From an uncultured Rikenellaceae bacterium (GTDB lineage Bacteria > Bacteroidota > Bacteroidia > Bacteroidales > Tenuifilaceae): a DNA stretch of 27,421 nucleotides. Positions 2,099 through 5,802 of the stretch are shown here, piece by piece. The notes beneath the pieces are model-generated. The model ran no database searches. It was given only the letters and a program-made list of their open reading frames with translations, and had not been told where the DNA came from. A program made the position numbers and the translations under genes. The stretch's first letter is position 1, and every line of letters begins with the position of its first letter. Location: the NCBI GenBank assembly GCA_964481075.1, contig CAYZSD010000030.1:1-27421 (forward strand), in the 5' to 3' direction.

Positions 2099-2114
2099 AA
2101 CTTTTGCAAAAGTT
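2099..2114. promoter_or_regulatory. Perfect 16-bp palindrome AACTTTTGCAAAAGTT, candidate ArsR operator
   Basis: Exact dyad symmetry, located 41 bp upstream of the arsR ATG and just upstream of a TAATTTTG -7-like box. Confidence 0.35.
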
Positions 2115-2133
2115 AACATAGATTTTTCATTTA

Positions 2134-2141
2134 TAATTTTG
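2134..2141 (+). promoter_or_regulatory. Bacteroidota-type -7 promoter box (TAnnTTTG) for the arsR-hgcAB-ars unit
   Basis: TAATTTTG lies 13 nt before the arsR ATG. No well-spaced -33 TTTG was seen, and the implied leader is short. Confidence 0.3.
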
Positions 2142-2154
2142 AGAAAAACAAACA

Positions 2155-2523
2155 ATGTCGTATGTTTGCGACATAAAACATTTAAGCATGACATACCCCA
2201 AAACATCGCTTTTCGATGCCGATTTACAAGAAATTGCAGCACTCGCAAAAACCCTTTCGCACCCGGCAAGGCTAGCCGTACTTCGATACCTTGCCAGCTC
2301 CGAAACCTGTATCTCTGGTGATATTTCCGACGAAATCCCTTTGAGCAGAACAACAGTATCGCAGCATCTGCAAGAACTTAAGAGGGCTGGATTAATTCAT
2401 GGCGAAATTGAGGGAACCAAGGTTTGCTACTGCATTTGCAACGAAAATCTTAGTAAAGTCTTCAACCTTTTTCATCATTTTTTTGAAGAGATTGGAAATG
2501 GAAAAACAACCTTCTGCAAATGA
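2155..2523 (+). CDS. arsR: ArsR/SmtB-family metalloregulator
   Basis: Winged-HTH core LSHPARLAVLRYLASSETCISGDISDEIPLSRTTVSQHLQELKRAGLI. The stop codon overlaps the hgcA start within ATGA. Confidence 0.85.
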   Translation: MSYVCDIKHLSMTYPKTSLFDADLQEIAALAKTLSHPARLAVLRYLASSETCISGDISDEIPLSRTTVSQHLQELKRAGLIHGEIEGTKVCYCICNENLSKVFNLFHHFFEEIGNGKTTFCK

Positions 2524-3545
2524 TAAGCGCAGCATCTTCAAATACTAGCCATAAACTTGGTATCCCAGTAGTGTCTTCTAAATGGACCAAGACCGATATT
2601 TGGGAACATGTTAAGTTAAGATGGTCAATAGGTAGAAACAAATCCAAGGTAAAACCAGGGATTTATGCCATTGGCAATCCAACATCCGATTCGGATGTGT
2701 TTGTCACAGCAAATTACAAGTTAAGTTTCAACCATCTACGAAGAGCCCTCGATGGCTTTGATGCTTGGATACTTGTGCTTGACACAAGAGGTATAAACGT
2801 TTGGTGCGCTGCTGGAAAAGGGACTTTTAGCACTTCTGAACTGGTAAAGCGAATAAAGTGGCATGGATTGGAAAAGGTAGTGAACCATAAAAGGTTAATT
2901 GTACCCCAACTTGGAGCAACGGGTGTATCAGCACACGATGTTATGAAACGTTCGGGTTTTAGGGTAATCTTCGGGCCGGTACTCGCAAGCGATATCAAAG
3001 ATTTTATTAGTAATGGCTACAAGGCAACTCCAAACATGCGAAGGGTTTCATTTCCATTGTGGGAAAGAGTAAAGCTAATTCCAGTTGAACTCGCTTACGG
3101 CAAATACTTCCTTTTAATAATCCCGCTGTTTTTTTTAATCATTTCTGGTATTGACTCAACGGGTTTATCAATTGAAAAAGTAATAAACATTGGAGGAAAA
3201 TCTGTACTATCTTTAATTGTAGCATATATTTCTGGAAGCGCGATTACCCCAATTTTGCTGCCCTACATACCCTTTAAAAGTTTCTCACTAAAGGGACTTT
3301 TTGTGGGTATTATAAGTGCTGCTGCCCTATTCTGTTTGGGGGTAATTAATTATCCTTTGGCTGAGGTTGTTGCATGGTTCCTAATCATTGGCGGTTTATC
3401 GTCATTTATGGCAATGAACTACTCTGGCTCATCCACGTTTACATCGTTATCGGGAGTCAAAAAGGAGATGAAGTATGCGCTTCCATCGCAAATTTTTAGT
3501 TTGAGTGTTGGTTCTCTTACATGGATTGCAATGCGTTTTATTTAA
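2520..3545 (+). CDS. hgcA: HgcA, mercury-methylation corrinoid protein (cap-helix domain plus 5 TM helices)
   Basis: Signature NVWCAAGK at nt 2796-2819 (Cys codon 2805-2807), in the context VFVTANYKLSFNHLRRAL...AWILVLDTRGINVWCAAGKGTFST...LIVPQLGATGVSAHDV. The C-terminal ~150 aa form about five hydrophobic helices. Confidence 0.85.
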   Translation: MISAASSNTSHKLGIPVVSSKWTKTDIWEHVKLRWSIGRNKSKVKPGIYAIGNPTSDSDVFVTANYKLSFNHLRRALDGFDAWILVLDTRGINVWCAAGKGTFSTSELVKRIKWHGLEKVVNHKRLIVPQLGATGVSAHDVMKRSGFRVIFGPVLASDIKDFISNGYKATPNMRRVSFPLWERVKLIPVELAYGKYFLLIIPLFFLIISGIDSTGLSIEKVINIGGKSVLSLIVAYISGSAITPILLPYIPFKSFSLKGLFVGIISAAALFCLGVINYPLAEVVAWFLIIGGLSSFMAMNYSGSSTFTSLSGVKKEMKYALPSQIFSLSVGSLTWIAMRFI

Positions 3546-3555
3546 TAAAAAGAAT

Positions 3556-3855
3556 ATGAGTAGATTAGTATATCTGTCTGGTGTGTCAACCCTTAAACTC
3601 GATGAAGAAAAATGCACTGGATGCACTATGTGCACCATTGTTTGCCCCCACGAAGTTTTTAAAATTGAGGATAAAAGAGCAAAAATTATTGACGTTGATT
3701 ACTGCATGGAGTGCGGTGCATGTCAGAAGAATTGCCCAGAGGGAGCCATTTCGGTAAAATCTGGCGTGGGATGTGCTGCTGCTGTAATTTCGGGCATGCT
3801 AAATATCGATAACCCATCGTGCTGCAGCATTCCTAAGAATACAAATTGTTGTTAA
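3556..3855 (+). CDS. hgcB: HgcB, 2x[4Fe-4S] ferredoxin partner of HgcA
   Basis: The start is taken at the internal ATG (MSRLVYLSGVSTL...). It has two CX2CX2CX3CP motifs (CTGCTMCTIVCP, CMECGACQKNCP), a GVGCAA segment and a C-terminal ...SCCSIPKNTNCC. It begins 10 nt after hgcA. Confidence 0.8.
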   Translation: MSRLVYLSGVSTLKLDEEKCTGCTMCTIVCPHEVFKIEDKRAKIIDVDYCMECGACQKNCPEGAISVKSGVGCAAAVISGMLNIDNPSCCSIPKNTNCC

Positions 3856-3878
3856 AAAAACATTCTAAAACTACTAAT

Positions 3879-4325
3879 ATGAAAATTCTGATTCTCTGTA
3901 CCGGAAATTCCTGTCGAAGCCAAATGGCCGAGGGATTCCTAAAGTCTTTCGATGCTAGCATTGAGGTTTACTCTGCTGGAACCGAACCATCAAGTCAAGT
4001 TCATCCGCTCGCCATTAAGGTGATGGCCGAGGCGGGTATCGATATCTCAAAAAATCAACCCAAAAGCGTTGTTCAATTCATCTCCGAAAGTTTCGATTTT
4101 GTAATTACCGTTTGCGGTGGTGCAAACGAGAGTTGCCCTACTTTTACTGGCAAGGTTGCAAATAGATGGCACATCGGTTTTGATGATCCCGCCGAGGCAA
4201 CTGGAACCGAAGAGGAGGTGCTGCAAGTTTTCCGCCGTGTGCGCGATGAGATTGCTGAGGGATTTGGCGGATTCTACAAATCGCAAATCAAAAAGGAAGA
4301 TAGGTGTGGTTGCTGCTGTGGGTAA
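3879..4325 (+). CDS. arsC: Arsenate reductase, LMW-PTPase (thioredoxin-coupled) type, with an extra Cys-rich tail
   Basis: The start is at the internal ATG (MKILILCTGNSCRSQMAEG). It has the CX5R P-loop and the VITVCGGANESCP relay cysteines. An unusual C-terminal RCGCCCG follows. Confidence 0.9.
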   Translation: MKILILCTGNSCRSQMAEGFLKSFDASIEVYSAGTEPSSQVHPLAIKVMAEAGIDISKNQPKSVVQFISESFDFVITVCGGANESCPTFTGKVANRWHIGFDDPAEATGTEEEVLQVFRRVRDEIAEGFGGFYKSQIKKEDRCGCCCG

Positions 4326-4367
4326 GAAATATTCTAAAAATCATAAACAACCTAACTAGGTAAAAAC

Positions 4368-5396
4368 ATGAGTACAATAAAGCAAATAGGTTTCTTTGAA
4401 AAGTACCTAACCATTTGGGTTGCACTTGGAATTGCCTTTGGGATTGCAATTGGTCATCTTGTGGACGATGGCATTGAAATAATTAGCAGTTTGGAAGTTG
4501 CAAAGGTTAACATTCCGGTGGCAGTCCTAATCTGGCTAATGATCTACCCCATGATGCTTCAGGTTGACTTTACCAGTATCAAGCAGATTGGAAAAAAGCC
4601 CCGTGGGGTTGTGTGGACGGTAATCATAAACTGGCTGATCAAACCCTTTACCATGGCATTTTTTGCCTGGCTTTTCTTCTCAAAGCTTTATCAAGCGTGG
4701 ATCGACCCCTCATTGGCAGGTGAGTACATTGCGGGAGCTATTATCCTTGGTGCCGCACCCTGTACGGCGATGGTGTTTGTGTGGAGCTACCTTACCGATG
4801 GCGACCCTAACTACACGCTGGTTCAGGTTTCGGTTAACGACCTGATTATCCTTGTAGCTTTCGTGCCAATTGTTGGGCTTCTGCTAGGTATTACCGATGT
4901 AATCATTCCCTATGATACCCTTGTGGCAAGTGTTGTAATTTTTGTTGTAATCCCTTTAGTGGCAGGAGTAATAACCCAAAGAATACTTATCAAGTTACAC
5001 GGGATAGAGTGGTTTAAAACCGTTTTTCTTCCCAAACTGAAACCGATTAGTATTGTAGCACTGCTCGTTACGCTTGTATTGCTGTTTGCATTTCAGGGGC
5101 AGAACATTCTTAACAACCCTTTCATCATTCTGTTGGCAGCAGTCCCATTGGTAATTCAAACCTATTTCATATTCTTTCTGGCATGGTTTGGCGGCAAAAA
5201 GCTAAATCTTTCCCATCCAGTTTGCGCACCTGCTGCAATGATTGGTGCCAGCAACTTCTTCGAGCTGGCTGTGGCCGTTGCCATTGCGCTATTTGGGTTG
5301 CAGTCGCCAGCCGCACTGGTTACGGTTGTTGGGGTGCTGGTTGAGGTGCCTGTGATGCTCTCGCTGGTAGCTTTTGCCAATAGAAAAGGGTATTAA
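4368..5396 (+). CDS. acr3: ACR3-family arsenite efflux transporter
   Basis: 342-aa polytopic protein with [22 protein letters not shown] (conserved Cys) and [15 protein letters not shown] motifs. Confidence 0.9.
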
Positions 5397-5436
5397 CTTA
5401 CAAACAAACAACTGACAATCTACTCAATATATCAAA

Positions 5437-5661
5437 ATGCCAACATTCTACTGCAAATCGTGCAATCTTAAATTCGAGGCCGAGGGAGTAAAACAGGAAT
5501 GGATTGACCCTACTTTTGGCCCTTGCAGCAAGCTAACTGCTCCATGCCCTTCAAGTGGCGAAGAGTGCAATGAGTACCAATTACCTAAGCAGTCCAAAGA
5601 GGCTAATCAACCAAATTTTTCTGCTTGTGGCATGGGGGGAGGATGCCGTGGATGTGGATAA
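5437..5661 (+). CDS. Small cysteine-rich protein, FmdB-like zinc-ribbon N-terminus (variant) with a Gly/Cys tail
   Basis: 74 aa. The N-terminus MPTFYCKSCNLKFE resembles the MPxYEYxCxxCGxxFE family start. The second CxxC is replaced by C-x6-CP-x5-C. The C-terminus is CGMGGGCRGCG. It is the last ORF before the terminator. Confidence 0.5.
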   Translation: MPTFYCKSCNLKFEAEGVKQEWIDPTFGPCSKLTAPCPSSGEECNEYQLPKQSKEANQPNFSACGMGGGCRGCG

Positions 5662-5664
5662 TAA

Positions 5665-5802
5665 TGTAAAATGCAAAACAGCAAAATGTAAATCGGAATT
5701 AAGAGCGGTTAATCCCAGAAATCTTTTACTCCTGCTTGCCCTGCCTATGTCGGCAGACAGGCAGCAGGCAAGTTTTTTACATTTTGCAGTTTTACACTTT
5801 GC
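5665..5802. repeat. Long imperfect inverted repeat (27-28-nt arms) enclosing the operon terminator
   Basis: The left arm is tgtaaaatgcaaaacagcaaaatgtaaa (5665-5692) and the right arm is tttacattttgcagttttacactttgc (5776-5802). About 22 of 27 positions are complementary. Confidence 0.5.
5735..5778 (+). terminator. Rho-independent terminator of the ars-hgc unit
   Basis: A ~15-bp GC-rich bulged stem is followed by T6 at 5773-5778. Pairings are cttgcc/ggcaag, ctgcct/aggcag and gtc/gac, with a ggca loop. Confidence 0.6.

Follow-up and report, generated by a model that had tools for sequence, protein, structure and literature searches.

An hgcAB cassette within a predicted ArsR-controlled arsenic-resistance operon of an uncultured Bacteroidales bacterium

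Why microbes retain hgcAB, the gene pair responsible for mercury methylation, is a long-standing question, puzzling because mercury neither induces nor obviously selects for these genes. A connection with arsenic resistance is among the few published leads on their role. Here we describe a locus in a 27,421-nucleotide stretch of DNA from an uncultured Rikenellaceae bacterium (GenBank assembly GCA_964481075.1, contig CAYZSD010000030.1; hereafter the window, meaning the whole stretch), which offers a compact and fully interleaved example of this connection. We consider it likely that positions 2138-5778 form a single transcript, repressed by ArsR and derepressed by arsenite, and that the locus is a Bacteroidales arsenic-resistance (ars) operon with an internal hgcAB cassette.

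In Pseudodesulfovibrio mercurii ND132 hgcAB shares its transcript with an ArsR/SmtB regulator gene that immediately precedes it (arsR2-hgcA-hgcB); this regulator controls hgcAB and responds to arsenic (Gionfriddo 2022/2023). The arrangement is shared with the window, the cysteines C47/C49 and C86/C88 of ArsR2 match C41 and C80/C82 of the window ArsR (alpha-3 position and beta-wing), and palindromes related to the one described below precede the regulator in Desulfobacterota hgcAB loci. By analogy with the ND132 regulator, we propose arsenic control for the window. The two systems differ in that no further ars gene adjoins hgcAB in ND132, whose ArsR2 has been described as distinct from the repressors of ars operons, whereas the window has the ordinary ars-operon ArsR of its clade and carries arsC and acr3 within the same unit.

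Linkage of hgcAB to arsenic genes has also been reported in metagenome-assembled genomes. McDaniel 2020 (PMC7438021, Fig. 6) shows that in diverse putative methylators hgcAB is flanked by acr3 and arsC and has arsR and arsM in its vicinity; Gionfriddo 2022 (bioRxiv 10.1101/2022.10.17.512643; AEM 2023) cites the co-localisation of hgcAB with ars genes and ArsR-linked hgcAB in Bacteroidetes, including Paludibacter jiangxiensis; Peterson 2025 (PMC11984097, Fig. 4c) places acr3 and arsC beside an hgcA preceded by arsR, with lower hgcA expression when the regulator is present; and Zhang 2023 (PMC10349881) summarises the same association of hgcAB with arsR, arsC and acr3. The loci of McDaniel, Peterson and Zhang resemble the window in the immediately flanking acr3 and arsC and in the arsR-like gene upstream. 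The association is described qualitatively in the text examined, and the order found in the window, with arsC after hgcB, is a minority one in the survey below. The earlier note on this DNA implied that the linkage was new and connected the native role of HgcAB with arsenic; McDaniel 2020, Gionfriddo 2022/2023 and Peterson 2025 had already described the former, in Bacteroidetes as well, and the latter had been stated and tested in ND132. Rather than a discovery, the locus is one more instance of an association already in print. What is new here is a defined candidate operator, the generic ars nature of the regulator, and an alternation of arsM with hgcAB that includes a clean swap pair.

Two other arsenic operons provide useful comparisons. 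The arsRBC operon of Staphylococcus aureus pI258 follows the same logic of ArsR repressor, reductase and efflux, and its ArsC belongs to the same fold family and has the same Cys triad; it differs in using ArsB for efflux where the window has Acr3, in its classic CVC site, from which the sensing cysteines of the window ArsR are displaced, and in its ArsC, the window protein scoring under the pI258 equivalog cut-off. Perlabentimonas gracilis (locus L090, GCA_011174675.1) provides an example of the canonical Bacteroidales ars operon, arsR-arsC-arsM-acr3; this operon has the same palindrome at the same distance from arsR, and its products are 59% (ArsR), 62% (ArsC), 87% (Acr3) and 81% (small Cys-rich protein) identical to those of the window. 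Unlike the window, it carries arsM, encoding an S-adenosylmethionine (SAM)-dependent arsenite methyltransferase (NF008823, 326 bits against 263), where operons of the hgcAB type hold hgcA-hgcB.

The six-gene operon

Six open reading frames (ORFs) on the same strand (arsR, hgcA, hgcB, arsC, acr3 and a small Cys-rich gene) run from one promoter region to one strong terminator:

2188-2523, plus strand: arsR, ArsR/SmtB repressor of 111 amino acids (aa) (NF033788; start set by homologue alignment)
2520-3545, plus strand: hgcA, corrinoid protein of 341 aa (NF040863; start overlaps the arsR stop)
2796-2819, plus strand: cap-helix motif N93-V-W-C96-A-A-G-K100 of HgcA (read from the sequence)
3556-3855, plus strand: hgcB, 2x[4Fe-4S] ferredoxin of 99 aa (NF040864)
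3879-4325, plus strand: arsC, arsenate reductase of the LMW-PTP (thioredoxin-coupled) type, 148 aa (Pfam LMWPc)
4368-5396, plus strand: acr3, arsenite efflux permease of 342 aa (TIGR00832)
5437-5661, plus strand: small Cys-rich gene, product of 74 aa (placed through homologues and gene neighbourhoods)
5731-5778, plus strand: intrinsic terminator, made up of a G+C-rich hairpin with a bulge (5731-5772) and T6 (5773-5778)

The arsR stop and the hgcA start share ATGA at 2520-2523 (a junction of -4 nucleotides, nt), and the following gaps measure 10 nt (hgcA-hgcB), 23 nt (hgcB-arsC), 42 nt (arsC-acr3) and 40 nt (acr3 to the Cys-rich gene). The six co-oriented ORFs, the five junction lengths and the ATGA overlap reproduced exactly what the earlier note had listed. 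To locate terminators we folded the sequence upstream of every T-run, a procedure that replaced a simple pattern scan for promoters and terminators; that scan returned fewer sites than shuffled sequence did and missed the true terminator because its hairpin has a bulge. The hairpin at 5731-5772 has a folding energy of -22.2 kcal/mol (fold z-score -2.3), and the second-best candidate reached -10.9 and did not adjoin its T-run. The claim of a single strong terminator downstream therefore holds, since 5731-5778 is the only strong hairpin adjoining a T-run on the plus strand between 2100 and 5900. Between hgcB and arsC, where a break in the transcript would have separated hgcAB from the arsenic genes behind it, sequence reading and T-run folding revealed neither a terminator nor a recognisable promoter. 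Across the whole window there was no Rfam match, such as a cobalamin riboswitch, and no ArsM homologue, the latter as noted earlier; an arsM gene may be encoded elsewhere in the genome of this organism. With its co-orientation, short gaps, one promoter region and one terminator, the six-gene set has the architecture of a single operon in which hgcAB is embedded among arsenic genes, as originally proposed.

HgcA scored 417.7 bits against NF040863, the curated NCBI equivalog model (cut-off 275), and fell below the cut-off on both paralogue models, with 206 bits for the HgcAB-like fusion (cut-off 285) and 75.5 bits for CFeSP gamma (cut-off 306). These hidden Markov model scores assign the 341-aa protein to HgcA rather than to an HgcAB-like or CFeSP paralogue, a distinction on which the earlier reading depended. 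The cap helix, defined as N(V/I)WCA(A/G)GK with its corrinoid-ligating Cys, is present as NVWCAAGK at the position first reported and is unchanged in all 26 aligned relatives. The soluble domain resembles CFeSP gamma, which is also the nearest solved structure, no structure of HgcA itself being detectable by sequence. At the C-terminus, Kyte-Doolittle hydropathy points to a multi-pass membrane domain of four to five transmembrane segments: of the five predicted previously, four are clear (198-216, 229-247, 259-277 and 280-298), and the fifth, towards the C-terminus, is only a weaker one. HgcB, whose gene adjoins hgcA, passed the cut-off of its curated model (NF040864, 120.4 bits; cut-off 99) and retains two CX2CX2CX3C clusters (C20/23/26/30 and C50/53/56/60), C73 and two C-terminal Cys pairs (C89-C90 and C98-C99), which bears out its original identification. 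In sequence terms, HgcA and HgcB thus have every hallmark of a mercury-methylating pair.

The identities first given to arsC and acr3 were also sustained. ArsC matched Pfam LMWPc (E = 1.3e-21) and keeps the P-loop C7-TGNSC-R13 (CX5R) together with the redox cysteines C79 and C86, completing the Cys triad, while Acr3 scored 380.7 bits against the curated equivalog TIGR00832 (cut-off 282.8).

Operator, promoter and regulator

Upstream of arsR, three elements can be proposed:

2138-2141, plus strand: candidate -33 element TTTG, 19 nt upstream of the -7 box (sequence reading)
2155-2174, plus strand: candidate ArsR operator, the 20-bp palindrome ATGTCG-TATGTTTG-CGACAT, that is ATGTCGTATGTTTGCGACAT (conservation)
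2161-2168, plus strand: candidate -7 box TATGTTTG at the centre of the palindrome (fits the Bacteroides/Bacteroidetes -7 consensus)

The half-sites ATGTCG-N8-CGACAT match perfectly only once in the window, at 2155-2174. In nine loci with unconserved flanks this palindrome is near-invariant (18 of 20 positions identical), and its spacing to the arsR ATG is constant at 13 nt. In about 25 loci, related palindromes with a CGT-N6-RCG core precede arsR genes linked to hgcAB by the same distance; among these are Desulfobacula and Leptospiraceae loci, in which the arms are retained and the centre is different. A scan of metagenome contigs for the palindrome yielded at least 120 loci, and in 109 of the 120 matches listed an arsR could be detected immediately after the exact motif. 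This conservation makes 2155-2174 the best candidate for the ArsR operator. In the literature searched we found no description of an operator or palindrome upstream of an hgcAB-linked arsR, which does not prove that none exists. The operator candidate of the earlier note, at 2099-2141, did not survive the comparison: it is not conserved in relatives, in which the conserved element corresponds to 2155-2174. A 14-bp palindrome at 2100-2113 (ACTTTTGCAAAAGT), some 45 nt upstream of the conserved operator, is real and perfect; it is shared by no relative and was excluded from the unit.

Bacteroides promoters have the consensus TTTG at -33 and TAnnTTTG at -7. The elements at 2138-2141 and 2161-2168 may correspond to these, and relatives have a T-rich or TTTG stretch at the position matching 2138-2141. 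Operator-like palindromes (TTAACGTATTATTACGTTAT and TTATCGTATTATTACGATAT) were also seen directly before hgcA, at 1064-1083 in locus L011 and 6786-6805 in locus L050; no arsR was detected in the interval, which points to regulation in trans in some genomes.

The palindrome also changes the reading of arsR. The start at ATG 2155 that had been assumed falls within it, and the peptide MSYVCDI, seemingly a conserved N-terminus in the ArsR alignment, is at the DNA level the palindrome itself. In loci L088 and L090 there is an in-frame stop between the palindrome and arsR, so the palindrome is non-coding, and relatives conserve the ATG that matches 2188. We therefore rejected the start at 2155; arsR most likely runs from 2188 to 2523, and its residues are numbered from 2188. 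With this start and the palindrome, the locus offers a concrete cis-element and a corrected arsR for use in binding and reporter assays.

ArsR scored 65.3 bits against NF033788 (cut-off 55) and also matched Pfam HTH_5 and HTH_20. It lacks the classic CVCDLC site and has cysteines at positions 41, 80, 82, 84 and 110. C41 and C82 are kept in every close hgcAB-linked ArsR homologue aligned, and the C-terminal Cys (C110) is found in most Bacteroidales homologues; a three-thiolate As(III) site is plausible. The ArsRs of hgcAB-type operons are 75-87% identical to those of operons carrying arsM, often exceeding the identity among themselves. Judged by these comparisons, the regulator and operator of the window are the generic Bacteroidales ars ones, shared with ars operons that have no hgcAB.

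On these grounds we infer that ArsR binds the palindrome, that arsenite is the inducer and that the six genes are co-transcribed. The ArsR/SmtB dimer (2188-2523) would sit on 2155-2174, where the palindrome overlaps the putative -7 element, occluding the -7 box and blocking RNA polymerase. Arsenite would bind a thiolate site formed by C41, C80/C82 and probably C110, releasing the repressor. One mRNA carrying arsR, hgcA, hgcB, arsC, acr3 and the 74-aa gene would then extend to the terminator at 5731-5778; ArsC would reduce arsenate to arsenite, Acr3 would export the arsenite, and HgcA and HgcB would be produced together with these arsenic proteins.

Several points weigh against this model. Promoters within the coding sequence are possible, a sigma-70-type scan being uninformative for Bacteroidota. 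Three to five cysteines could serve just as well for sensing Sb(III), Cd(II), Pb(II) or Hg(II). ArsC scored 129.5 bits against TIGR02691, the pI258 equivalog, under the cut-off of 174.3; this looks like a property of the clade, because the ArsC of the P. gracilis ars operon likewise falls short (141.7 bits against 174.3). Mercury methylation had not been demonstrated in any Bacteroidales as of a 2020 preprint. In ND132 the regulator responds to S-adenosylhomocysteine as well, and an hgcAB deletion had no more than a modest phenotype with arsenate and none with arsenite (Gionfriddo 2022/2023).

hgcAB and arsM in related ars operons

The earlier note had raised the concern that the arrangement might be a one-off and proposed a survey of hgcAB neighbourhoods across Bacteroidota. 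We examined the 80 species representatives that best match the window HgcA, out of at least 596 HgcA loci. Same-strand arsC and/or acr3 lay beside hgcAB in 21 of the 29 Bacteroidota-labelled species loci and in three of the 51 other loci (Fisher p = 5.6e-10), and a further three Bacteroidota-labelled loci had arsR only; many contigs are short, which makes these counts lower bounds. The exact order of the window, with arsC after hgcB, occurs in none of the 80 species representatives, and the usual order places arsC ahead of hgcA, as in L088 (HgcA 63% identical; arsR-arsC-hgcA-hgcB-acr3). The window order is therefore a minority variant, carried by the window and by the two closest relatives whose contigs are long enough to show the order, L003 (69% HgcA identity) and L085 (65%), both arsR-hgcA-hgcB-arsC-acr3. 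The operons of some relatives are longer (arsR-Thioredoxin_3-DsbD_2-ArsP_1-rhodanese-arsC-(DsbD_2)-hgcA-hgcB-(GNAT)-acr3), and the extra genes are arsenic or organoarsenic resistance genes.

Two side observations came from this survey. Many loci, belonging to several phyla, have an ORF of 231-235 aa immediately before hgcA (for example L007 6245-6946, L015 6225-6926 and L034 6269-6961, with ORFs of this size class also in L009, L013, L017, L055, L058 and L082), whereas the window has none; the L007 copy scores as DsbD_2, a family matched by 12 of 116 co-oriented neighbour ORFs in Bacteroidota-type loci. Locus L012, labelled Alphaproteobacteria, combines an HgcA 56% identical to that of the window with a Bacteroidales-type ArsR, which may reflect mis-binning or horizontal transfer.

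The operator scan connected hgcAB with arsM. Among the loci listed, 55 had at least 2 kb downstream of the palindrome: 28 carried arsM, eight carried hgcAB, 19 carried neither and none carried both. The arsM-type operons were mostly arsR-arsC-arsM-acr3, and those of the hgcAB type followed the pattern arsR-(arsC)-hgcA-hgcB-(acr3). Redundancy was low, the 109 ArsRs and the window ArsR forming 104 clusters at 95% identity; when loci with shorter downstream sequence were included, 36 clusters were of the arsM type, 11 of the hgcAB type and none mixed. Co-occurrence, at none observed against about four expected, is a weak statistic, biased by short contigs and by a sample confined to the matches listed.

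One matched pair displays the alternation directly. Locus L212 (arsR-arsC-hgcA-hgcB-acr3) and locus L108 (arsR-arsC-arsM-acr3) are 87% identical in ArsR, 97% in ArsC and 82% in Acr3; their DNA similarity starts at the operator, stops at the arsC stop codon and returns in acr3. The HgcA of L212 retains the cap helix and shares 50% identity with the window HgcA. The pair represents a cassette exchange within one operon backbone, and the hgcAB genes of the window occupy the place that arsM has in related operons. No description of this alternation was found in the literature searched, although an earlier report may still exist. Strict exclusivity can be set aside, because the operons of L014 (4684-5919), L017 (471-1865) and L018 (4695-5927) contain single-ORF fusions of an LMW-PTP ArsC with an arsenite methyltransferase and hgcAB in the same operon.

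What, then, does hgcAB do in these operons? Bacteroidales ars operons might simply be permissive landing sites, with hgcAB a passenger that is co-expressed by location and has no arsenic function. The ars operons of this clade do carry varied extras in varied order (DsbD_2, Thioredoxin_3, ArsP_1, DGC, rhodanese and GNAT), the position of arsC relative to hgcAB varies by lineage, and the window, L003 and L085 have dissimilar sequence around the cluster. In the window, gene fragments and a toxin-antitoxin pair lie upstream; outside Bacteroidota, hgcAB is rarely ars-linked. Within that phylum, however, the linkage is the rule, and the cassette is internal to the operon with short gaps rather than at its edge. 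HgcAs as distant as those of the window and L212 both sit in this operon type, and most of the other would-be passengers are themselves known arsenic or organoarsenic genes. We regard hitch-hiking as a possibility, albeit a rather doubtful one. If instead HgcAB stood in for ArsM, it would methylate As(III) with the methyl group carried on its corrinoid, giving methylarsenite and a reduce-methylate-export pathway that needs no SAM-dependent ArsM. Methylcobalamin-dependent methylation of arsenic has chemical precedent, and the characterised member of the ArsP_1 family exports methylarsenite; related hgcAB operons contain ArsP_1 permeases. The absence of arsM from the window, the separation of arsM and hgcAB among the listed operons with the same operator, and the swap between arsC and acr3 in L212 and L108 fit this explanation, and the alternation is the strongest new argument for reading hgcAB as a methylation module. 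Against it stand the three operons that hold both an ArsC-ArsM fusion and hgcAB, the weakness of the exclusivity statistic, and the chance that arsM lies elsewhere in the genome; we know of no experiment in which HgcAB acts on arsenic. The ND132 data linked no arsenic methylation to hgcAB, and the arsenic phenotype of the deletion was mild (Gionfriddo 2022/2023). We judge substitution for ArsM unlikely, and equally so the broader proposal that HgcAB is an arsenite-induced, cobalamin-dependent counterpart of ArsM, with mercury methylation a side reaction of arsenic or soft-metalloid methylation.

Least probable of all, in our judgement very improbable, is an operon for soft metals, whose regulator senses Hg(II) or another thiophilic cation besides or instead of arsenite and whose HgcAB methylates Hg(II) for detoxification and export. 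The four to five cysteines of the sensor exceed what As(III) needs, the ND132 authors raise Zn, Cd and Pb binding for their four-Cys site, and the Cys-rich tails of HgcB, ArsC and the 74-aa protein would suit the handling of Hg(II). Yet the operons that this regulator and operator control are, among the matches listed, mostly plain arsC-arsM-acr3 ones, no mer genes lie nearby, and mercury had no inducing effect on hgcA in ND132; that Acr3 is an arsenite/antimonite carrier also counts against this explanation.

Our working view of HgcAB in this setting is that of an arsenic-induced corrinoid methyl-transfer module that would act on a thiol-loving metal or metalloid, Hg(II) being the only substrate established for the HgcAB family. 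The alternation of arsM and hgcAB in one slot turns the question of whether HgcAB does the job of ArsM into a direct swap experiment. If arsenic does control hgcAB in abundant fermentative Bacteroidales, arsenic geochemistry matters for predicting methylmercury production.

Accessory and flanking genes

The 74-aa protein has a zinc-ribbon-like CxxC near its start and a Gly/Cys-rich end (CGMGGGCRGCG). Its four homologues are 70-81% identical to it, and those of L090 and L091 lie within ars operons, beside rhodanese and Thioredoxin_3 genes. The last gene of the unit is, on this context, a real ars-associated accessory gene, placed outside the conserved core because the closest hgcAB relatives do not have it. 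ArsC also ends in a Cys-rich tail (4300-4322), CGCCCG in the window and GCxCCG in the relatives L003, L085 and L088; the tail is confined to these nearest relatives, the other hgcAB-linked ArsCs having none. Similar tails occur in the 74-aa protein and in HgcB (CC...CC).

Convergent with the operon, a gene at 5830-6204 on the minus strand encodes a 124-aa protein with an N-terminal hydrophobic anchor, many CC and CxxxC motifs, a repeated DP(S/E)KCAK and a His-rich tail, which looks like a metal-binding protein. It had no homologues among the fetched loci, and neither it nor the 74-aa protein matched any Pfam or NCBIfam family even at E = 1. Divergent from this gene, a histidine kinase, an OmpR-type response regulator and an SMR-family small multidrug efflux protein are encoded in a row (6396-8691); beside the ars-hgc operon, these genes may constitute another unit that responds to metals or toxicants.

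The upstream flank contains mobile-element-like and decayed genes and differs from those of L003 and L085; it is described as such because it holds a Gp49/HI1420-type toxin-antitoxin pair together with a DUF4172 fragment of 62 aa that corresponds to the N-terminal part of Fic-type proteins (106-721 and 1780-1968). Between these, at 912-1521, two overlapping ORFs have similar N-termini, and the second matches only positions 21-136 of the 294-position ArsP_1 profile. The two resemble a remnant, duplicated or truncated, of an ArsP-type permease whose gene is found intact within sister hgcAB-ars operons.

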